Assembly: GCA_964414675.1 (NCBI GenBank)
Contig: CAYPYF010000007.1
Coordinates: 1-58,457 of the forward strand
Direction of reading: 5' to 3'
Length of the DNA: 58,457 bases
From: an uncultured Dehalococcoidaceae bacterium
GTDB lineage: Bacteria > Chloroflexota > Dehalococcoidia > UBA2979
Below are positions 4,044 to 53,596 of the stretch, piece by piece. The notes below the pieces were generated by a model. That model was not told the DNA's origin and searched no databases. It saw only the letters and a list, made by a program, of their open reading frames with translations. A program made the position numbers and the translations under genes. The number at the start of each line of letters is the position of its first letter. Within the stretch, counting starts at the first letter, position 1.

Positions 4044-4564
4044 GGGCCTCCTTGCGGTGGGACGCGCCGGTCGGGGGCGCCGCGTCGGTCATCGCGGGCG
4101 CTACCACCGGTGGGCTCGTGGCCCAGTCGTACGCGGGCGCCACCTTCGGCTGCAGCGTCGCGCTCCTCGCGATCGCGGTGGTCGTGGACCTCCGGGAACG
4201 CCGGATCCCCAACACCGTTACCTACCCGGCCGTGATGGCCGCCTTGCTGCTCGCTGCGTTGCAGGGACCAGCCGCACTCGGTTCCTCCCTCGGGGGGCTC
4301 GCGGCCGCCGGTGGGATCCTCGCGGGATTGTCGGTCCTCTCCCGGGGCGGCCTGGGGGCGGGTGACGTGAAGGCCGGCGCCGCCGTCGGTGCGCTGGTGG
4401 GGCCGTCGGCTGCGTTGCAGTTCGTGGTGGCGACCAGCGCAGCCGGCGCTGCCCTCGCCGTGGTCTGGCTGGTTGCAGGACATCGTCGTCAGGACACACT
4501 GCCCTACGCCCCGGCGCTTGCCGCGGGCGCGTTGATCGTCGCGCTCACCGCTCAGGTCGCGTGA
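4040..4564 (+). CDS. Prepilin peptidase (A24A, short TadV/CpaA type)
   Basis: Both catalytic Asp motifs present (VDLRERRIPN, GAGDVK), multiple TM helices, LPYAPAL tail. Confidence 0.88.
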   Translation: MRASLRWDAPVGGAASVIAGATTGGLVAQSYAGATFGCSVALLAIAVVVDLRERRIPNTVTYPAVMAALLLAALQGPAALGSSLGGLAAAGGILAGLSVLSRGGLGAGDVKAGAAVGALVGPSAALQFVVATSAAGAALAVVWLVAGHRRQDTLPYAPALAAGALIVALTAQVA

Positions 4565-4582
4565 GCTGAGGAGGACTCCGTC

Positions 4583-5890
4583 ATGCTGAAGAGACGCATG
4601 CACACGTTCGCCCGCGTCGGGTCACGGGTCCATCGCGACGAGCGAGGGCAGGCGCTGCCCCTCCTGGTCGCCGCCATGATGGTCTTCGTGGTGATGGGCG
4701 TGATCGTCATCGACTTCGGCCAGATGTTCGCGGACCGGCGCGAAGCACAGCGCGCCGTGGACCTCGCAGCACTGGCCGGAGCGCAAGACCTCCCATGGGA
4801 GGCGGACGACCCCAACGCACTGGCCAAGCTCCTCGCGGCACGCGCAAGCGCAGAGGGGTTCCTGGACACGAACGGCTACCCCGCCGTCGCGTCAGACGTC
4901 GAGGTGATCGTCACGACCGAGTATGGCAGCGACCCTCGCGCGATCGAGGTGGAGGCGCGACGGCCCAGCATCTGGCGCTTCGGGACGCTGTTTGGCGTCG
5001 GGCAGCCCTCGGTCGGTGCGCGCGCCGTGGCGCAGCTGCGGACCCTGCCGACCGAGTACGGGATCATGGCGCTGAGCCACGCGGCCTGCCAGGCGTTCCA
5101 GGTGGAAGGAAACGTCACCCTAGAGGTCATCGACGCAGGCATCCTGGTGAACTCGAGCTGTCCCAACTACGCCATCGACATCGTCGGCAACGTCATCGTC
5201 GAGAGCGCACAGTTCGACCGCTACTACGAGGGCTCGACGTGGATCACCTCGAACACGACCGTGGACCCGATGCCGCAGTCGCTCGGGTGGCGTGTCGACG
5301 ACCCGCTCTCATACCTGCTCGAGCCCGACCCGTTGACGCTCCCGACGTCACCCGATTCCGGGGGGACGTCCGCGAGCCCCGCGCTCAGGAGCCTCGGCGG
5401 TGGAGGGAGCCAGACCCTGCGGCCGGGCGTCTACTGGGGCGGCCTGTCGATCGCGGGCAACAAGGATGTGGTCTTCGAGTCCGGGCTGTACGTGATGGCC
5501 GGCGGCGGATTCACGATCCGCGGAAACGGCGACATCACCGGCGACGGGGTCACGATCTTCAATACGACCCGTGGAGGCTCCTGCGGCGCGATCGACCTCG
5601 CTGGCGGTCGGCCCCTCGGGTTCTCGCCGCAGTTGTCGGGGCCATACGAGAGCCTGACGTTCTGGCAGTCCGTGGGCTGCACCAGGACCATGGTTCACGG
5701 CGGCACCGTGGACTCCCTCAGCGGACTCATCTATCTCCCCACCGCGGCGTACGAGCTGGCGGGCGACGGCACGATGTCGGGCGTCCAGGTCATCGCCTCG
5801 ACGGTCCGGGTGAGCGGCAACGGCATCGTCACGATCGACTACGAGAACGGCGCCGTCGCCGAGGTCTGGACCGTGATGCTGGTGGAATGA
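4583..5890 (+). CDS. TadG-like pseudopilin/tip protein with large Gly-rich beta domain
   Basis: ERGQALPL + hydrophobic helix, IDFG, AQRAVDLAALAGA Tad N-terminal motif, GGAG RBS. Confidence 0.85.
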   Translation: MLKRRMHTFARVGSRVHRDERGQALPLLVAAMMVFVVMGVIVIDFGQMFADRREAQRAVDLAALAGAQDLPWEADDPNALAKLLAARASAEGFLDTNGYPAVASDVEVIVTTEYGSDPRAIEVEARRPSIWRFGTLFGVGQPSVGARAVAQLRTLPTEYGIMALSHAACQAFQVEGNVTLEVIDAGILVNSSCPNYAIDIVGNVIVESAQFDRYYEGSTWITSNTTVDPMPQSLGWRVDDPLSYLLEPDPLTLPTSPDSGGTSASPALRSLGGGGSQTLRPGVYWGGLSIAGNKDVVFESGLYVMAGGGFTIRGNGDITGDGVTIFNTTRGGSCGAIDLAGGRPLGFSPQLSGPYESLTFWQSVGCTRTMVHGGTVDSLSGLIYLPTAAYELAGDGTMSGVQVIASTVRVSGNGIVTIDYENGAVAEVWTVMLVE

Positions 5891-6010
5891 GTGAGCCCGC
5901 TGGACCTGTCGCACAGGGCCGGTGGAGTGGCGCGGCGTAACTGACCCACTCTTATGTTCTCTTTCGTTCGCCTGACGGGACGGCTCCTACGCTCACGACC
6001 TGGGGGATCC

Positions 6011-45218: not shown

Positions 45219-45875
45219 CTACGCAAGGAGTGGGGCGATCTGCCGCAGGTCCTCGACGAAGAGCCTTCGCGCCGTCTGGCGCGCGTCGACGCCTCGCGCC
45301 CGGAGGATCGAGGACGGATGCACCGTGGCGAGTACAGCCGGTGCCAGATCCGTGTCGCGGATCACCTCGCCTCGGTGCCGGGTGACGCGGAACGCACGGC
45401 CCAGCAGGGCCTGCGCCGCGGTCGCGCCGAGGCAGACGACCACCCGGGGGCGCACCGCCGTCACTTCGGCCGCCAGCCAGGGGCCGCAGGCATCGATCTC
45501 ATCCTGGCGAGGCTTCTGGTGAAGCCGGCGCTTCCCTCTCGGCGTCCACTTGAAGTGTTTCACCACGTTCGTGACGTAGGCGCCTGACCGATCGATGCCG
45601 GCCTCGTCCAGTGCATCATCGAGGAGCTGCCCGGCAGGGCCGACGAACGGGCGTCCCTCCTGGTCCTCGTGATCGCCCGGCTGCTCGCCGATGAGCATGA
45701 GACGAGCGGTGCGTGGCCCCTCGCCAAAGACAGCCTGGGTGGCGTCGCGATAGAGCGGGCACGCCGTGCATTGCTGGGCAGCCTCGTCCATTGCACGCAG
45801 TCCGCCTCGGGCGGGTACGAAGGGGGCTGCTGCGCCATCGCGGAGGTCTTCGAGGATCGAGCCGTCTGGCCTCAT
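45219..45875 (-). CDS. udgX: UdgX family-4 uracil-DNA binding protein
   Basis: CTACPLY, GEQPGD.ED..G.PFVGPAG, KHFKW..RGKRRLHQKP R-loop with His, TVHPSSILR. Confidence 0.92.
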   Translation of the reverse strand: MRPDGSILEDLRDGAAAPFVPARGGLRAMDEAAQQCTACPLYRDATQAVFGEGPRTARLMLIGEQPGDHEDQEGRPFVGPAGQLLDDALDEAGIDRSGAYVTNVVKHFKWTPRGKRRLHQKPRQDEIDACGPWLAAEVTAVRPRVVVCLGATAAQALLGRAFRVTRHRGEVIRDTDLAPAVLATVHPSSILRARGVDARQTARRLFVEDLRQIAPLLA

Positions 45876-46018
45876 CCCGCAACGCTAACCGGACTCCACT
45901 ACTACGCACGCAACGCCAGCCGTCACCTTCCTCGCGATTTCGTTGCTCCCCCGTGTCCGCTGCGGCAAGCGATCCAGCGCACGCTGAATGATGATCTGCT
46001 CGGTTGAGGGCATCCACG

Positions 46019-49000
46019 TCACCCCCAGCTCTTGCCGGCGGGCACGGCGAGCGTCTCGGCAGGGAAGAACTGCGCGACGGAGTCCGCGATCAGCGTCCGC
46101 TGCTCTCCCGCGCGCTCCTCGAGGGGGCCGGTGACGCGGATGAACGGGGCGGTACGGATGATGTCGCGGTGGGCCTCGACGAGTTCGCGGTTCACGAGGA
46201 CGTTCACCATGCCGAACTCGTCCTCCAGCAGCAGGAAGATGATCCCCTTTGCGGTGAGCGGCTGCTGACGGCAGACCACGAGCCCGGCGAGGTCGACGCG
46301 AGTGCCGGCCGGCATCGAGCGCAGGTGCAGACTGGAGACGACGCCCTCACCGAGGCCCGGGCGCAGGAACTGCATCGGGTGGCTGTTGGGCGAGAGGCGC
46401 AGCACGGCGTAGTCGCTGGCCATGCGCTGGTACTCGCTGAAGTCCGCCAGGCGTACCGCGTCCTGCTCCACCGGCAGCGCGAGGCGCAACTGCCGGTCGT
46501 GCCGGCGGCGCAGGTCCGCCTGCTCGTACCCACCGACAAACAGTCCCAGCTGCCAGATCAGCTCACGCCGGTTAAGGCCGAGGCTGTCGAAGGCGCCGAT
46601 GCGGATGAGGTTCGTCGTCGCTTCCTTCGAGAGCCCCGTGCGCTGCACGAACTCGAAGAGTGACCGGTACTCGCCGTCGCGCTGTCGTTCGTCCTCGATG
46701 CGTGCGGCGGCGGCCGCGCCGACCCCCTTCACGTACGCCAGGCCGACGCGCACCACGCCCCGCAGGTCCACGCCGGGGTCGTCCGGAAGGACCACGTCCA
46801 CGGTGCACTTCGCATTGCTCTGGTTCACGTCCGGACGATGGACCGCCACGCCATGGCGCTGCGCATCGTTCGTGAGGACGTGCGCGGGGTAGAAGCCCAT
46901 CGGCTGCTCGTTGAGCAGTGCACACAGGTACTCCGCCGGGTGATAGTGCTTGAGCCACGTCGACTGGTACGCGAGCAGGCCGAACGCCGCGCCGTGTGAG
47001 CGCGGGAAGCCGAACTCAGCGAAGCCCAGCAGGTTCTCGAACATGCGGGTCGCCTCCGCCGTGGAGACGTCCGGGTGCGTGACCGCGTGCTCCATGAACT
47101 TCTGGCGGTACGACTCCATGATCGCGAGCGACCGCTTGCGGCTCATCGCCCGGCGGAACGTCTCAGCCTCCCCGGGGGTGAAGCCACCCATCTGCTTCGC
47201 CACCTCGATCACCTGCTCCTGGAACAGCACGACGCCGAGCGTGTCCTTGAGGGCCTCGCGGACGCACTTCGGCATCGGCACGCGGTAGTCCGGGTTCCGG
47301 CGCTGCTCCTCACGACGACGGACGTAGGGGTTCACGGCGCCGCCGACGATCGGACCGGGACGCACGATCGACACCTGCACGGTGAGGTCATCGAGGTCCT
47401 CGGGGCGCGTGCGCGGCAGCATTGCGATCTGCGCGCGGGACTCGATCTGAAAGACGCCGACAGTGTCGCCGTTGCAGATCTCCTCGAAGACCGCTTTGTC
47501 CTGCATGGGGATGCGCGACAGGTCCACCACCCGTTGCGTCTGCTGTTCGACGAGGTCGACGCACTCCTCGACCACGGAAAGCATGCCGAGGCCGAGGAAG
47601 TCGATCTTCACCATGCGCGCGTCCTCGATGCTGTCCTTGTCCCAGTGCGCGATGAAGCGGTCCGGCCAGCGCGCCGGCTGGCAGGGGACGCAGTCGATGA
47701 GCGGGTCAGAGGAGATCACCATCCCCCCCACGTGCTGCGACAGGTGGCGAGGGAACCCGGCGAGCTGGTGCGCCATCTCCGAGAGGTGCCGCCAGGCGCG
47801 GTCCTCCGCACCCTCGTACGTACCGGAGAGCTCCGCGACGCCGCGCTGACGCTGTACCTCCTCTGCCATCTGCGTCGCGCGGTCGTACGGCTTCGCCCGC
47901 TTGGCGAGGCGGTCGACCTCGGTCTCGGGCAGGCCAAACGCGCGGCCGATGTCGCGCACCGCGCTGCGGATGCGGTACGTGGGGAAGATCGCGACGAGCG
48001 CGGCGTGGTCTCGGCCCCAGTGCTCGTACACGCGCTTGATGAGCTGCTCGCGGATGTCGCGCGGGAAGTCAAGGTCGATGTCCGGCAGCGACAGCAGCGA
48101 GTCGTTGAGGAACCGGTCGACCGAAAGGTGGTTTCGGATCGGATCGATGTGCGACAGGCCAATGAGGTAACAGACCAGCGAGGACACCGACGATCCTCGA
48201 CCGCGCCCCGGCGGCAACTCCGTGACGCTGCGCGCGCGGCTCGGGCCGCGGACCTCCTCGGCGACCTGGACCGCAAGCTTCATCACCTCGAAGTAGACGA
48301 GGAAGAACCCCGCGAGGCCGTTCATCTCGATCATCTCGAGTTCGTACTCGAGGCGGTCGAGCGCCGGCTGGCGCTCGTTCAGCACGTACTTCGGGAGCAG
48401 GCGCTCCATGCAGATGCGGCGCAACTCCTCGATCGGCGGCAGGCCGCTCTCGTTCTCGGGGTCGGGCAGGCGGTAGCCGAGGTCCTGGGTGAGGTCGAAG
48501 GTGCAGCGCCGCGCAATGCGGACGGAGTTCGCGGCGGCCTCCGGGTGGTACGTCTCGAATCGCCGGGCCTGGTCCTGCGGGGACCGCAGGTAGAACTCCC
48601 CGTTCGGACGGCGCTCACGATGCGACTCGTCGAGGGTCTTTCGGTGCTTGATGGAGACGAGCACGTCCTGCAGCCGCGCCCGGTCCGGCTCGTGGTAGTG
48701 CACATCCCCGGTGCCGACGACCTCGACCCCGACGCGCTCTGCGAGGGCCACGAGCGCACGGTTCCTCGGCCGGTCGCCGAAGACGAGGTTGTCGACCAGC
48801 TCGACGTACACGTCCTCGCGGCCGAACCAGGTGACCCAGCGCGCGAGGGCCGCCTCGGCCTCGGCTGTCCGTCCGGCGTGCACCAATTGCGTCACGAGGC
48901 CCTCGCGACAGCCCGTGAGCAGGATCAGCCCGTCCGTGTGTCCTTCCAGGAACGCGACCGGCAGCACCGGATCGAGGCGACGCTGCTCGCGGCCGTCCTG

Positions 49001-49471
49001 CTTCTCCTCGTGCAGTCCAAACGCCTCGCTCGAGAGCCGGCAGAGGTTCGCGTACCCCTCGCGGCGTTCGGCGAGCAGCGTGACATGGTGGCGGGCGCCG
49101 TCCTCCTCGGCGAGCGTGAGCTCCAGGCCGGTGATCGGTCGCATGCCGATCTCCTTCGCCGCGCGCGCGAACTCCATCGAGCCGTACATGCCCTCGTGGT
49201 CCGTGAGGGCGAGCGCGCGGTGGCCCTGGTCGTAGGCCTGCACCAGCAACTCGTCGATCCGCGAGGCACCCTCGAGCAGCGAGTAGTTCGAGTGCGCGTG
49301 CAGCTCGACGTATGGCACGTCGTCGAGGACGGAGAGCGGGACGGCCGCGGCGGGATCCCGCGGGGCCATCGAGCGTGGCGTGTCCGCCTCCACCTGGGTA
49401 TCGATCTGGCGGCGTCGTTCCGCGAACGCCTCCCACGAGTAGTCGTAGGGCGAGTGCTTGAGCGGACTCAT
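46019..49471 (-). CDS. dnaE2: Error-prone DNA polymerase III alpha homolog DnaE2/ImuC
   Basis: PHP motifs (ELHAHS, TDH), GRGSS, PDIDLDF, KIDFLGLGML, FAEFGFPRSH, LLNEQPMGFY, OB fold. Context next to imuB. Start placed at ATG 49471. Confidence 0.95.
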   Translation of the reverse strand: MSPLKHSPYDYSWEAFAERRRQIDTQVEADTPRSMAPRDPAAAVPLSVLDDVPYVELHAHSNYSLLEGASRIDELLVQAYDQGHRALALTDHEGMYGSMEFARAAKEIGMRPITGLELTLAEEDGARHHVTLLAERREGYANLCRLSSEAFGLHEEKQDGREQRRLDPVLPVAFLEGHTDGLILLTGCREGLVTQLVHAGRTAEAEAALARWVTWFGREDVYVELVDNLVFGDRPRNRALVALAERVGVEVVGTGDVHYHEPDRARLQDVLVSIKHRKTLDESHRERRPNGEFYLRSPQDQARRFETYHPEAAANSVRIARRCTFDLTQDLGYRLPDPENESGLPPIEELRRICMERLLPKYVLNERQPALDRLEYELEMIEMNGLAGFFLVYFEVMKLAVQVAEEVRGPSRARSVTELPPGRGRGSSVSSLVCYLIGLSHIDPIRNHLSVDRFLNDSLLSLPDIDLDFPRDIREQLIKRVYEHWGRDHAALVAIFPTYRIRSAVRDIGRAFGLPETEVDRLAKRAKPYDRATQMAEEVQRQRGVAELSGTYEGAEDRAWRHLSEMAHQLAGFPRHLSQHVGGMVISSDPLIDCVPCQPARWPDRFIAHWDKDSIEDARMVKIDFLGLGMLSVVEECVDLVEQQTQRVVDLSRIPMQDKAVFEEICNGDTVGVFQIESRAQIAMLPRTRPEDLDDLTVQVSIVRPGPIVGGAVNPYVRRREEQRRNPDYRVPMPKCVREALKDTLGVVLFQEQVIEVAKQMGGFTPGEAETFRRAMSRKRSLAIMESYRQKFMEHAVTHPDVSTAEATRMFENLLGFAEFGFPRSHGAAFGLLAYQSTWLKHYHPAEYLCALLNEQPMGFYPAHVLTNDAQRHGVAVHRPDVNQSNAKCTVDVVLPDDPGVDLRGVVRVGLAYVKGVGAAAAARIEDERQRDGEYRSLFEFVQRTGLSKEATTNLIRIGAFDSLGLNRRELIWQLGLFVGGYEQADLRRRHDRQLRLALPVEQDAVRLADFSEYQRMASDYAVLRLSPNSHPMQFLRPGLGEGVVSSLHLRSMPAGTRVDLAGLVVCRQQPLTAKGIIFLLLEDEFGMVNVLVNRELVEAHRDIIRTAPFIRVTGPLEERAGEQRTLIADSVAQFFPAETLAVPAGKSWG

Positions 49472-49507
49472 TGAGGTGGCCTGGCGACCGTGTGCACGGA
49501 GGCAGTG

Positions 49508-49540
49508 CATGTATATACTTCATAACGGAGCGTATATATG
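49508..49540. promoter_or_regulatory. AT-rich inverted repeat, probable TA operator/promoter between divergent dnaE2 and antitoxin
   Basis: CATGTATATAC-N13-GTATATATG, containing a TATACT -10-like hexamer. Confidence 0.6.
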
Positions 49541-49861
49541 GAACTCACCACTGTGCAGTACTCGACCGTCTCGACGAAGGGCCTCGCCGTCATCCCCAGG
49601 GCCGTACGGGAACGGCTGGGCCTGCGACAGGGCGACAAGGTGGCGTTCGTGATGACCTCGGACGGTGTCTGGATCCAACCGGCCACCGAGGATCCCGTGG
49701 CCCGTGGGCTCGGCCTGCTCGCTCCGGCGCGGATCGACATCCTCGCGGACAAGCGCGCTGAAGCGGCGGCCGAGGAGCGGGACCTGCCCGCCCCTCGCCG
49801 GCAGACGGCCCCACGCGTGGCTGAACAGTCAGGGACATATCGGACGCCGCGGAAGCGGTGA
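49538..49861 (+). CDS. AbrB/MazE/SpoVT-family antitoxin
   Basis: STVSTKGLAVIPRAVRERLGLRQGDKVAF. GTGA overlap with the PIN gene. Confidence 0.88.
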   Translation: MELTTVQYSTVSTKGLAVIPRAVRERLGLRQGDKVAFVMTSDGVWIQPATEDPVARGLGLLAPARIDILADKRAEAAAEERDLPAPRRQTAPRVAEQSGTYRTPRKR

Positions 49862-50298
49862 ATCCCCGCGCCGCCGAAGAGGAGTCGCGCCGGGTCGTCC
49901 TCGACTCCTTCGCCGTGCTCGCGTACCTGCAGGACGAACCCGGTGGACGCGCGGTGCAGGCGCTGCTCCGAGCAGCGGCCGAGGGCGCCGCCTCGCTTCA
50001 CATGACCACCGTGAATGTCGGTGAGGTCGCATACCGCGTCGAGCGCGCCTACGGCGCAGCGCGACTGCGCGATGTCCTCGTCTGGCTGCGTTCCGCGCCG
50101 ATCGAGCTGCACGCAGTCGACGAGGAACTGGCGCTGGGTGCTGCTGAGATCAAGGCCAGGCACGCGATGGCGTTCGCCGACTGCATCGCGGCTGCGCTGG
50201 CCCGTCTGCTCGATGCGGAGCTGGCGACCGGTGATCCTGAGCTGCGCCCCCTGGACGGTCACCCGCGGCTCCTCTGGTTGCCATCGCCGAAGCGTTGA
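49858..50298 (+). CDS. vapC: PIN-domain (VapC) toxin
   Basis: VVLDSFAVLAY, NVGEV, AFADCIAAA, LATGDPEL: the acidic tetrad is present. Confidence 0.9.
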   Translation: MNPRAAEEESRRVVLDSFAVLAYLQDEPGGRAVQALLRAAAEGAASLHMTTVNVGEVAYRVERAYGAARLRDVLVWLRSAPIELHAVDEELALGAAEIKARHAMAFADCIAAALARLLDAELATGDPELRPLDGHPRLLWLPSPKR

Positions 50299-50636
50299 CC
50301 ATCTCCTCCTTGAGCAGGCTCGCTGTACGGCTGCTCGTACCAGGCGCCGGTCACGTCATCGCGGTAGAGCGTCAGAGGTCTGCCGTCCGAGAGGACGATC
50401 CGGTAGTACGTCCGTCGCTGTGGCGCCTCGCGCCACCATGCTTCGGCCAGCCGCCACTGCTCCTCGATGCTCTCGACGCGGGACTCCGGCCCTCGATGCC
50501 CCCGCGCGTCGAGGCGCGCGACGGCGAGCGGCATCGCGTCGCCGTCTTCCTGCACGACGACTCCACGAGGCAGCCCCAGCGGACGCAGGCCCAACGGACG
50601 CAGGGAGGTGGGACTCATGCGCCGTGCGGGCGTCAC
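50259..50636 (-). CDS. DUF6504-like small mutasome-associated protein
   Basis: V..I.E.WR....WWR....RTYYR+.L.DGR.L.LYRD...G.WY pattern. GTGA overlap with the imuB stop (alternative start 50618). Confidence 0.75.
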   Translation of the reverse strand: MTPARRMSPTSLRPLGLRPLGLPRGVVVQEDGDAMPLAVARLDARGHRGPESRVESIEEQWRLAEAWWREAPQRRTYYRIVLSDGRPLTLYRDDVTGAWYEQPYSEPAQGGDGQRFGDGNQRSRG

Positions 50637-51856
50637 GGGTCGTACTCCAGCAGCGCGTGACGCCGCTCCGGCAGGCGGTGCCACGGCTCCATGTCCACGA
50701 CCCGCGTGATCGGCGACTCGCCGAAGCGCACCTTCAGGTGCCGCACCATCTCGTCCAGTTGCTCGCTTCGGCGGGACTGTTCGACGAACAGGCTGTGCTG
50801 GCGTCCGCTCTCCTCGGTCAGTCCGCCCAGTTCCAGCGTGACCAGCGAGAACGGCCCCGGGAACTCCGCGTACTCCACTGCCGTGCGCAGCACGGTCCAG
50901 AGCCGTGCCCGGTCGCCCAGCGGCTCGCGCAGGACCTGATCGTGCTCCCAGAGCGCACCGCGCTCCGTCTCCGCCCAGAGCCGGATGCTCCGCACGAAGC
51001 GATTGCGCGCGCGAGGGTGCCGCAGTGCGCGGCCCAGCATCTGCTCGATGCCGTGGAGGATCGCCTCGCGGCTCACGAGCGGCGGCTCGGCCTGCACATA
51101 CTCGACGACGCGCTCGCGCTCCCACGGCCGAGGGCGCAACGGACGGGGGTCCTCGCCTCGCGCCGCCAGCCAGGCGACCCCGCCGGCGAGCCCGAACCGC
51201 GCCTCCACCGCGTGCCGGGGCAGGACCGCGAGTTGCCCGCAGGCGTCGATGCCGAGCAGGTGAAGTTGCTCGATGTCCTCCGGCGCCAGCGGCAGGTAGC
51301 GCACCGACTCATCCGCCATGAACGTGGCGGCTTCGCCCTCCGACACCTGGACCACCGCCGAGGGCTCCGCTCGACGTGCGGCGAGGTACGCCGTCAGCCG
51401 ATGACTGCCGAGGCCGAGCTGTGGACTCAGCCGCTCCGGTACCCCGGCGAACACCGCCCGTCGCAGGTCCTCGATGCGCGGGTACAGCGCCTCCGTCCCG
51501 CGCAGGTCTGCGAAGACGATCCCGGGCTCTGCCTCCTCGACGAGCGGGCTGACCGAGGCCATCGCCTCCACCAGGCTCGCTGCGTAGCGCGCCACCAGTG
51601 CGGGGCGCTGCTCGAGGATGGTGAGCGTCGGGCACACGGCCACGGCATCGCGCAGCGTCATCCCCGTCCGCACGCCGTGCAGACGCGCCTCGCGGGTCAC
51701 CTCGACGACGCGGCCCCGCCCGAGGTCGCTCAGCGCGACGGGAGCACCGGCCAGGCCCGGGCGCTCCACCAGTTCGCACTGGAATGCGAGCGCGGGGATC
51801 GCGAGGCAGGCGATCGCGCGGGAGTGGTCGGGGAGCGGCAAGCGGGCTGTGGACAT
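50633..51856 (-). CDS. imuB: ImuB-like catalytically inactive Y-family polymerase
   Basis: Y-family fold (AR..GVR.GM.L.DA...CP, SPLVE) without the catalytic Asp/DE residues. C-terminal RLPERR. SOS box upstream. Confidence 0.85.
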   Translation of the reverse strand: MSTARLPLPDHSRAIACLAIPALAFQCELVERPGLAGAPVALSDLGRGRVVEVTREARLHGVRTGMTLRDAVAVCPTLTILEQRPALVARYAASLVEAMASVSPLVEEAEPGIVFADLRGTEALYPRIEDLRRAVFAGVPERLSPQLGLGSHRLTAYLAARRAEPSAVVQVSEGEAATFMADESVRYLPLAPEDIEQLHLLGIDACGQLAVLPRHAVEARFGLAGGVAWLAARGEDPRPLRPRPWERERVVEYVQAEPPLVSREAILHGIEQMLGRALRHPRARNRFVRSIRLWAETERGALWEHDQVLREPLGDRARLWTVLRTAVEYAEFPGPFSLVTLELGGLTEESGRQHSLFVEQSRRSEQLDEMVRHLKVRFGESPITRVVDMEPWHRLPERRHALLEYDP

Positions 51857-51890
51857 CCTCATCCCTGCCAATCGGGGGAGGGATGGTATC

Positions 51891-51904
51891 AGAACGTCCG
51901 TTCT
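51891..51904. promoter_or_regulatory. LexA (SOS) box
   Basis: AGAAC-GTCC-GTTCT, 35 nt upstream of imuB. Matches the GAAC-N4-GTTC class and the AGAAC-N4-GTTCT site described for Dehalococcoides. Confidence 0.85.
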
Positions 51905-51994
51905 ATCTCTGTGACACGGCACTCCGCGTGCCGAGATTTAGCCCACCTTGCCAATGTGGCGGTGTGGAGCGAAGTGCGGGAGCGCCGAGCCGAC

Positions 51995-53596
51995 CTACGG
52001 CCGGACGGCGCGCTTCTCGCGTTTCGCGAGGCGCGCGAGGGCCGGCTGGGCGAGCCGGACGAACCGGCAGGCGAGCGCGCGGGTGTCGCGAGGATCGATC
52101 AGGTCGGTGACGTCGAAGTGGTGGGCGGAGCGGAACGGGGAACGGAGTTTGATGATCCGCTCCTCGATCATCTTCTGGTGCGCCTCCGGATCCGCCGCCG
52201 CCGCGATCTCGCGTGCGTAGGAGGCAGCGACACCGCCCTCGATCGGGATGCCGCCCCACTCGCCGGAGGGCCACCCGAAGCGGAGGTTCACGCCGGCGGG
52301 CACGCCGATGCTGTTGGGGACGCCGGCTCCCACGCCGTACGCCTTGCGGATCGCGAACAGCACCTTCGGCACTTTCGCCTCGGCGCTGGCGATCAGCGCG
52401 CGCGCACCTCGACGCATCGAGGCCTGCGACTCCGAGTGCGAGCCGATCATGAACCCCGGCATGTCCAGGAAGATGATCATCGGGAGGTTGAACGCGTCAC
52501 AGAGGTCCACGAAGTGCGCGTACTTGTCGGAGGCGTCCGCCGTGAGCGAGCCGCCGACGACCATCGGGTCGCTCGCGAGGATCCCGACGCTGAAGCCGTC
52601 CAGGCGCGCGAAGGCCGTCATGATCGAGCCGCCGTAGTAGCGCCGCATCTCGAAGAACTGGCCGTTGTCCACGACATGCCCGATGAGGCGGCGGATGTCA
52701 TACCCGGCCCGCCGGTCCCGGGGCATGATCGTCAGGAGCTCCTCGGCGCGGCGCTCCGGCGGGTCGCCGGTCTCCACGCGCGGGGCGACATCGTTCGTCG
52801 TGTCCGGGAGGTAGCTGAGGAACTGCTTGATCTGGTCGAAGGCGTCTTCCTCGGACTCCGCTTCGTTATCCACCTGGCCGCTGCGATGCACATGCATCGC
52901 AGCCCCGCCGAGCTCGTCCTTGGTGAGTTGCTCGCCGAGCGACCGCCGGACGACCTGCGGGCCGGACGGGAAGATCTGGGACTGCTCTTTCACCATGACG
53001 GAGAAGTGGGTCATCATCGCGTGCGCCGCCGGTGCCCCGGCGGTGGAGCCCATGATGCCCGTCGCCACCGGGACGGTGCGCAGGACCTCGGCCAGCCGCC
53101 AGTAGCCCTCGCCGGTGGAGAGCGCCATGTGCTGGCGCGTCTCGTCCGAGCGCGCGCTGTGGCCGACACCCTCCACGAGCTGGACGTACGGGATGCCGTA
53201 CTGCGACGCGAGCGGCATCGCGAACTGCGCGGGGCCTTTCTGCACATCGTGCGGGCTGCCGCCGGAGCGCGTGAAGTCGTGCCCGCCGATGGCGATGGGG
53301 CGCCCGTCGATCTCTCCGAGGCCCATCACGTAGCCCCCGGGGTTGAACGAGCGCAGGTTCCCATCGTCGTCATACTCGGCGGCGCCGACGAGCGGGCCGG
53401 CTTCGAAGAAGCTGCCCGGGTCCACGAACTTCTCGACGCGCTCGCGGATCGTGTAGCGGCCCCCGGCGTGCTGTCGTTCGATGCGTTCAGGTCCACCCAT
53501 CTCCTCGGCGAGGCCGCGGATGTAGGCGATGTCCTCGACTGCCTGGTCCCAGGGCATGCCGGGCTTCCAGCTTTCGCGCGTCGGATCGATGGGCAT
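51995..53596 (-). CDS. Acyl-CoA carboxylase/decarboxylase carboxyl transferase subunit
   Basis: GRYTIRERVEKFVDPGSF, DFTRSGGS, FPSGPQVV, ELGGA.MH..SG.VD, DMPGFMIG..SE. Confidence 0.92.
   Translation of the reverse strand: MPIDPTRESWKPGMPWDQAVEDIAYIRGLAEEMGGPERIERQHAGGRYTIRERVEKFVDPGSFFEAGPLVGAAEYDDDGNLRSFNPGGYVMGLGEIDGRPIAIGGHDFTRSGGSPHDVQKGPAQFAMPLASQYGIPYVQLVEGVGHSARSDETRQHMALSTGEGYWRLAEVLRTVPVATGIMGSTAGAPAAHAMMTHFSVMVKEQSQIFPSGPQVVRRSLGEQLTKDELGGAAMHVHRSGQVDNEAESEEDAFDQIKQFLSYLPDTTNDVAPRVETGDPPERRAEELLTIMPRDRRAGYDIRRLIGHVVDNGQFFEMRRYYGGSIMTAFARLDGFSVGILASDPMVVGGSLTADASDKYAHFVDLCDAFNLPMIIFLDMPGFMIGSHSESQASMRRGARALIASAEAKVPKVLFAIRKAYGVGAGVPNSIGVPAGVNLRFGWPSGEWGGIPIEGGVAASYAREIAAAADPEAHQKMIEERIIKLRSPFRSAHHFDVTDLIDPRDTRALACRFVRLAQPALARLAKREKRAVRP

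Follow-up and report, generated by a model that had tools for sequence, protein, structure and literature searches.

Damage-induced mutation, which in mycobacteria extends to drug resistance, is driven by error-prone DnaE2 mutasomes, and toxin-antitoxin (TA) pairs have been linked to growth arrest. The closest precedent for a TA pair in an SOS translesion-polymerase operon is dinB-yafN-yafO-yafP of Escherichia coli, where an SOS-regulated type II TA lies inside the operon of a translesion polymerase (PMC2814082, PMC3105422). Mutasome cassettes that combine iPolY/ImuY with a standalone ImuB-C and DnaE2 have also been described (PMC8072749, PMC6511836, PMC12926913), and none of these three papers mentions a toxin or an antitoxin in a split-ImuB cassette; toxins go unmentioned in two broad surveys of Y-family and DnaE2 modules, and full-text literature searches of our searchable library brought up no account of a TA lying within an imuB/dnaE2 cassette. 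For opposed transcription units, there is the excludon concept from Listeria (PMC7154746) and, among TA systems, the type IIb RelBE of Mycobacterium tuberculosis with its antisense RNA (PMC9325379). Here we describe a TA pair of the AbrB-VapC kind that lies backwards between the imuB-C and dnaE2 genes of a split mutasome, in a 58,457-nt stretch of DNA (contig CAYPYF010000007.1 of assembly GCA_964414675.1; "the window") from an uncultured Dehalococcoidaceae bacterium. Its features are listed in Table 1. The window's own locus is labelled WIN, and other loci, genomes and families carry the prefixes L, G and f, respectively.

The TA pair is encoded on the plus strand and both imuB-C and dnaE2 on the minus strand, so that the pair is antisense to the mutasome operon. 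A previous reading made from the letters of this DNA (hereafter the sequence-only reading) had proposed that the pair was inserted in the mutasome, and had suggested a comparison with relatives in which DUF6504 and dnaE2 are contiguous. Such relatives exist: in the closest ones (L002-L009, L027) the site is empty, and the imuB-C stop overlaps the dnaE2 start as ATGA or GTGA, which is a signature of translational coupling within one operon. Aligned with these loci, the insert of the window has one boundary immediately ahead of the TA -35 and the other precisely at the vapC stop, and a 4-bp microhomology (GGTC) is present on both sides. The insertion point is the variable 3' tail of imuB-C, both halves of which are still recognisable in the alignment, and the 16-nt imuB-C remnant together with the dnaE2 start preserves the ancestral ATGA stop/start overlap. 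The dnaE2 start codon is separated from the insert boundary by 16 nt and from the TA -35 by 20 nt; position 49471, from which the TA region had been counted in the sequence-only reading, is in fact the dnaE2 start codon and lies outside the TA. On the other side, the 3' ends of vapC and imuB-C overlap by 40 nt (50259-50298), and the final 12 imuB-C codons plus the stop are read from the antisense strand of the vapC 3' end, because imuB-C lost its own stop through the insertion and its frame continues into the insert to the next one. The overlap that had been pointed out is thus real, but it is a by-product of the insertion and no designed feature. In a tree of 54 ImuB proteins, the ImuB of the window is nested among TA-free cassettes (support 98-99). 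Judged from alignment and tree, the TA of the window is a recent and cleanly delimited insertion, through which the ancestral coupling between the imuB-C stop and the dnaE2 start was lost.

The same arrangement recurs across the class, which goes beyond what the sequence-only reading had noted. Among 40 relatives, four further genomes have the same pair in the same position and orientation. A VapC-profile search of public genomes returned 323 relatives, and among the best 80, for which the genomic context was read, eight are located at the imuB-C/dnaE2 junction, all eight in Dehalococcoidia or Chloroflexota. We also examined an even sample of 401 Dehalococcoidia genomes containing ~200 mutasome cassettes. 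This sample holds 42 strong family members, 12 of them within 2 kb of imuB and distributed over eight families (f1, f2, f7, f49, f53, f58, f60 and f74), and the share of cassettes carrying a TA is ~6%. Altogether, the TA occupies the imuB-C/dnaE2 junction in 19 Dehalococcoidia loci (at least 19 genomes, at least eight families), and it is antisense in all 19, with vapC toward imuB-C and the abrB promoter toward dnaE2. No other type of TA was seen at the junction among the inspected loci, and three records of annotated plasmid-borne imuABC cassettes yielded no informative case of a TA. The VapCs from the genus of the window (WIN, L028, L038) form a clade with a support of 90, and a single origin of all linked TAs was rejected, as an approximately unbiased (AU) test rejected the linked VapCs as a single clade (p = 0.00018) and the VapC tree needs at least seven changes of context. 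On the ImuB tree, the presence of the TA calls for at least 12 changes, at least eight of which are forced by strongly supported branches. Most likely, a mobile cassette of one VapBC family has repeatedly colonised the imuB-C/dnaE2 junction, with high turnover.

The junctions differ between loci. The insert of L028 follows an imuB-C stop that is still intact, that of L038 took the place of the first ~31 dnaE2 codons, and that of the window lies within the imuB-C tail; L050 (4700-6210) contains two tandem AbrB-VapC pairs that have diverged from one another. In L015, L023, L136 and L144, dnaE2 is not found within 1.4 kb downstream. Two further loci deserve mention on their own. A family-level relative (L012, G012) has ~700 nt of DNA poor in or free of open reading frames (ORFs), with internally repeated segments, between imuB-C and dnaE2 (~1780-2500), and the junction is therefore also occupied by sequence other than a TA. 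In the single-contig genome G030 (L022, 1786-2508), antitoxin and VapC form one fused ORF of 240 codons while imuB and dnaE2 are broken into several frames, which could reflect decay or indel errors of long reads.

Table 1. Features of the mutasome and the inserted TA cassette in the window.
Feature	Position	Strand	Basis or details
dnaE2, error-prone C-family polymerase, 1150 aa	46019-49471	-	NF004225 "error-prone DNA polymerase", 966.5 bits vs cutoff 939
264-codon open frame antisense to the whole TA	49468-50262	-	GTG overlaps imuB-C stop (GTGA); TGA overlaps dnaE2 ATG (ATGA)
Remnant of the original imuB-C 3' end	49472-49487	-	~19/23 bases match the intact imuB-C tail of L004
Inserted TA cassette, 811 bp (promoter/operator, abrB, vapC)	49488-50298	+	Alignment with TA-free L002-L004 and others
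TA promoter: -35 TGTGCA 49491-49496, 17-nt spacer, -10 TATACT 49514-49519	49491-49519	+	Homology to TTGACA/TTGCCA-N17-TATACT of family members
Putative antitoxin operator: inverted repeat GTATATAC ... GTATATA	49511-49538	.	Arm complementarity and family comparison
AbrB/SpoVT/MazE-fold antitoxin gene, 107 aa	49538-49861	+	PF04014 E 2.7e-6; TIGR01439 AbrB E 5.6e-9
PIN-domain VapC toxin gene, 146 aa	49858-50298	+	PF01850 PIN E 2.2e-15
Standalone ImuB-C (DUF6504) gene, 119 codons	50259-50618	-	PF20114 E 1.3e-3, weak, below gathering score
imuY/imuB-like Y-family polymerase homologue (iPolY), without ImuB C-terminal domain	50633-51862	-	PF00817 IMS E 2.4e-17
LexA (SOS) box AGAACGTCCGTTCT	51891-51904	.	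~29 nt upstream of imuY/imuB start codon

With regard to SOS control, the LexA box before imuY is the sole GAAC-N4-GTTC site with at most one mismatch in 45.8-52.1 kb. In the same genome the motif also precedes recA and ruvB, and there is a double box at another site; the imuB box is therefore a credible predicted SOS site. Nearly all relatives have a LexA box upstream of imuB, whether or not a TA is present, and never one between abrB and dnaE2; in the window, too, no dnaE2-specific box was found between abrB and dnaE2 with one mismatch allowed. The sequence-only reading had seen neither an SOS box at the palindrome nor a terminator at the vapC/DUF6504 border, and both statements hold up. Indeed, a terminator scan of 45800-52400 found none, the vapC/imuB-C junction folds no better than shuffled sequence (z +0.35 and +0.38), and no Rfam family matches there. 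The insertion has left dnaE2 of the window without an SOS box, and outside the TA control region there is no space in which a promoter of its own could lie. As laid out, any LexA-driven transcript that reaches dnaE2 would have to be antisense to the whole TA message, in line with what had been argued earlier. A side observation concerns another palindrome of the GAAC-N4-GTTC type, CGAACGCCCGTTCG, which in the same genome (G000, contig C20, ~6047) lies outside the window and precedes the replicative dnaE gene (Pol III alpha) by ~60 nt; it may be there by chance, as the genome contains 51 such sites where ~24 are expected.

Two other loci add weight to an antisense, LexA-controlled dnaE2 transcript, because in both of them a LexA-box promoter points through the antisense TA. 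In L117, the SOS promoter TTGAGT-[CGAACGTTTGTTCG]-TATACT leads into a 5' stub of dnaE2, behind which come the antisense TA and then an intact dnaE2, and this promoter (TTGAGT-[ATGCGAACGTTTGTTCG]-TATACT) precedes a near-leaderless GTG. The layout of L109 is similar, with a decayed stub and with the perfect LexA box and the -10 kept. A promoter of the L117 type, with its LexA box, is located directly before dnaE2 in the TA-free L018. Furthermore, the dnaE2 ATG is found at or within the TA -35/spacer in L096, L108 and L113 (in L113, 13 nt from the -10), so any dnaE2 mRNA of these loci overlaps the TA control region. In TA-bearing loci dnaE2 is intact (1081-1163 aa).

The reading that we prefer, with a probability of roughly one half, is that dnaE2 would be reached by LexA-controlled read-through, antisense across a minimal TA cassette that has a sigma-70 promoter of its own and was inserted backwards. 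Given the layouts of L117 and L109, the dnaE2 starts within the TA control region and the absence of a terminator, read-through is the most economical route in the window. Upon DNA damage, release of LexA would let RNA polymerase start before imuY, cross imuB-C and then ~0.8 kb of antisense vapC-abrB, pass head-on over the TA promoter and continue into dnaE2, and SOS induction would thereby generate an RNA complementary to the whole TA message. Transcription of the TA would in turn run convergently into imuB-C and imuY, resulting in mutual interference of the kind expected from an excludon-like layout. Both the read-through and any effects on toxin activity or mutagenesis are things we infer from the arrangement of the genes.

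Several observations weigh against read-through. An untranslated antisense stretch of 0.8 kb might be cut short by Rho, and the frame that could protect it is not clearly beyond a composition effect. A repressor complex bound to the operator could likewise block the polymerase. In L108, L109 and L111, 0.5-1.4 kb of unrelated genes separate imuB-C from the TA while dnaE2 is intact, so that read-through from the imuY promoter would hardly serve dnaE2 there, although L109 has a nearer, second LexA box. Lastly, the small share of TA-bearing cassettes and their high turnover are as compatible with a parasite that the host tolerates as with a useful component. As a separate observation, the second LexA box of L109 (G277, 5166-5908) is located ~50 nt upstream of an oppositely directed ORF for a membrane methyltransferase-like protein (226 aa), and this single palindromic box may serve two divergent units.

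We considered the antisense frame in some detail. A stop-free antisense frame spans the full cassette in 10 of 19 linked loci versus 2 of 58 non-linked ones, and relative to the dnaE2 start the last antisense stop is placed between -15 and +47 nt in most linked loci (L096 has a gap of 73 nt); in WIN, L020 and L050 the two overlap exactly as ATGA/TTGA. When codons were shuffled synonymously, the antisense frame reached p < 0.05 for L020 only, and linked loci did not differ significantly from the others (Mann-Whitney p = 0.19). Windows of 720 nt taken from the flanking genes proved open throughout in 25-70% of cases for many of these genomes, whose G+C content is high, and from such windows 6.2 spanning antisense frames are expected, versus 9 observed in 17 loci. 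Because frames of this kind are common at this G+C content, we rejected an antisense "bridging ORF" as evidence and keep it as an observation. Ribosomes may translate the 264-codon frame of the window from the read-through transcript, or the frame may have arisen by chance in a 69% G+C genome.

A different route to dnaE2 would be transcription from the TA control region itself, acting as a bidirectional promoter/operator. The antitoxin-toxin complex would then repress both units, and loss of the antitoxin, not cleavage of LexA, would induce the polymerase. We hold this to be rather unlikely, together with its details, in which the reverse complement of the left operator arm would supply a -10 and the right arm would supply a weak -35. 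The operator is indeed symmetric: GTATATAC, the left arm (49511-49518), is its own reverse complement, and a -10-like hexamer can be read on both strands. The right arm, GTATATA, occupies 49532-49538, and TATATAC/GTATATA are 100% complementary; the left arm and the -10 overlap, the right arm adjoins the ATG of abrB, and a Shine-Dalgarno sequence, GGAG, is present at 49527-49530. On the reverse strand, however, the hexamers are poor, since in the window position -7 has A, C or G in place of T, and nothing resembling TTGACA stands at -35. An automated promoter scan called nothing on either strand, and this includes the TA promoter (8/12 matches). In nearly all linked loci the dnaE2 start is 0-45 nt from the TA -35 despite the differing junctions, a constancy that a divergent promoter would account for, but a compact operon of overlapping genes would be expected to show such short distances in any case. 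A divergent promoter would also explain why only the antisense orientation is found, and it fits the intact dnaE2 of L108 and L111, where other genes part the TA from imuB-C. Yet the perfect LexA-box promoters upstream of the antisense TA in L117 and L109 would be pointless if dnaE2 were transcribed in this manner, and members of the family that are not linked to a mutasome share the operator geometry, so that nothing in it is specific to dnaE2.

This last point follows from the distribution of the element. A TTGACA-like hexamer, 17 nt, (GT)TATACT and a second arm (for example GTATAAC or GTATTAC) before the ribosome site are found with family members of many phyla in unrelated contexts, and since the same design precedes them there, the operator element is not dnaE2-specific. 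A perfect AT-rich inverted repeat stands at the operator position in 31 of 78 family loci as compared with 2.8% of shuffles. The palindrome is likely to be the cassette's own promoter and putative antitoxin operator; the family-wide inverted repeat overlapping the -10 lends support to the sequence-only reading, in which the palindrome was already the likely operator.

It is also possible, though we think it doubtful, that the TA is a passenger, selfish or neutral, that serves no purpose in regulation. The cassette would spread between mutasome loci together with pieces of neighbouring genes, either a dnaE2 5' end or an imuB-C 3' end, that anchor it by homology and thereby fix its site and orientation, addiction would slow its loss and incidentally stabilise a dispensable mutasome, and dnaE2 expression would be tolerated or reduced; such a passenger is compatible with either route of transcription. 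Scars at the junctions speak for this explanation. In L108 and L117, a dnaE2 5' stub (…ELHAHSNFSFLEGASHIEELVLRA…) lies beyond the vapC 3' end and convergent with vapC, while the abrB side carries the intact dnaE2; L109 retains such a dnaE2 stub in decayed form, and L056 has an imuB-C 3' stub on the dnaE2 side. Among non-linked copies, a regular-expression search revealed a recognisable dnaE2 stub beside the promoter of L099/L123 and nowhere else, a more decayed one in L126 was seen by sequence reading alone, and tblastn gave no dnaE2 or DUF6504 stub above threshold beside non-linked family members. Stub duplications are the trace expected of one-sided, homology-anchored integration, and they suggest that the cassette may travel with pieces of its mutasome neighbours. 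Further in favour of a passenger, the family is widespread, 72 of its 80 best loci lying in unrelated contexts, and its presence in mutasomes is patchy and barely clustered on the ImuB tree. The insert of the window is a bare cassette whose flanks consist of the 4-bp microhomology only, as a passenger might leave; these junctions are without donor flanks, however, and homology anchoring is not evident for this event. Moreover, the AU test places several VapC lineages at the junction, which argues for a repeated capture at one of ~2,500 possible sites, and this is hard to achieve without targeting or selection. In addition, dnaE2 and TA are both intact across family-level divergence (for example in the f53 trio and the f74 pair). 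Regarding L056, we note separately that an 88-codon coiled-coil-like ORF and a 46-codon imuB-C 3' stub are present between dnaE2 and the TA promoter (4247-4663).

Quite improbable, in our judgement, is an elaboration by which one VapBC lineage would have been captured at the junction again and again because the backwards layout forms an SOS-gated switch, with the antisense RNA silencing resupply of the antitoxin (through collision and RNA pairing) so that VapC pauses translation and growth during synthesis by DnaE2, with TA transcription and the operator complex damping a leaky mutasome in undamaged cells, and with the antisense frame being translated, carrying ribosomes and protection from Rho over the insert.

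Turning to the host operon, we find that it is an ImuA-less split mutasome consisting of imuY/iPolY, imuB-C and dnaE2, in which the DUF6504 gene is the standalone ImuB-C. No imuA-like gene precedes imuB, and the upstream neighbour is a carboxyltransferase gene. The imuY/imuB gene starts with an ATG at 51862 or 51856, and its product of ~410 aa has an IMS domain only and scores below the cutoff for every Pol IV model. By inspection of the translation, the N-terminal motif CLAIPALAF takes the place of the catalytic DxD of active enzymes, and from this motif alone the Y-family homologue is presumed to be catalytically inactive. For ImuB-C, whose domain match is weak, 26 of the 40 relatives and every cassette retrieved have a positional orthologue that bears the W-R-x-x-E-W-W-R motif. 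The DnaE2 proteins of family f1 carry an N-terminal extension of ~50 residues before the PHP motif YVELHAHS (49322-49471, minus strand, in the window), which the cassettes of other families are without. Directly downstream of dnaE2 lies a gene of the uracil-DNA glycosylase superfamily (45219-45875, minus strand; PF03167, E 1.2e-38), which possibly shares a transcription unit with dnaE2.

In the TA cassette, the PF04014 and TIGR01439 matches of the antitoxin cover residues 10-49, and the GTG start of vapC overlaps the antitoxin stop as GTGA (49858-49861). The acidic residues D16, E56, D108 and D126 of VapC are invariant in five orthologues. With a PIN toxin bearing the acidic quartet and a coupled DNA-binding antitoxin directly upstream, the pair has the sequence hallmarks of a type II VapBC system.

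If the recurrent link between mutasome and TA is truly hard-wired, it would offer a natural system in which to ask whether mutagenic synthesis is coupled to a growth pause. Even if the TA is a parasite, a single family that lodges at one junction in many lineages, in every instance backwards and with scars of neighbouring genes, makes a clear case for how TAs move and persist in operons.

Compared with known systems, the TA proteins themselves look ordinary. They resemble VapBC type II TAs with AbrB/SpoVT-fold antitoxins in the PIN domain with four acidic residues, the small DNA-binding antitoxin upstream, the 4-nt gene overlap and the putative palindromic operator over the -10, and it is the location of the cassette that is unusual. 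With the excludons and the RelBE system, the locus shares opposed neighbouring units without a terminator and a long transcript that would be antisense to one unit and mRNA for a gene downstream; the overlapping transcripts were demonstrated in those cases, whereas here they are deduced from sequence. As for the split-ImuB mutasomes (lexA-imuY-imuB-C-dnaE2 of Deinococcus deserti, and the Kyrpidia tusciae type), the likeness extends to the order of Y-family homologue, ImuB-C of ~100 aa and dnaE2, to the missing imuA and to control by LexA and SOS, which here is predicted, and the TA-free relatives of the window are ordinary members of this group. The window differs in that lexA is outside the operon, and in having a TA, of which the published types carry no mention. 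The dinB-yafN-yafO-yafP operon, lastly, is similar in that a type II TA is part of an operon for an error-prone polymerase under LexA control, predicted in the present case, and in an operon gene content that varies between strains. The E. coli TA, however, is co-oriented with the LexA-controlled polymerase promoter and co-transcribed, its toxin is YafO and the polymerase Pol IV; the TA described here is on the opposite strand in 19 of 19 loci, has its own predicted promoter/operator, encodes a PIN/VapC toxin and stands upstream of the gene for DnaE2, a polymerase gene that could be reached from its SOS promoter only by antisense reading through the toxin genes.

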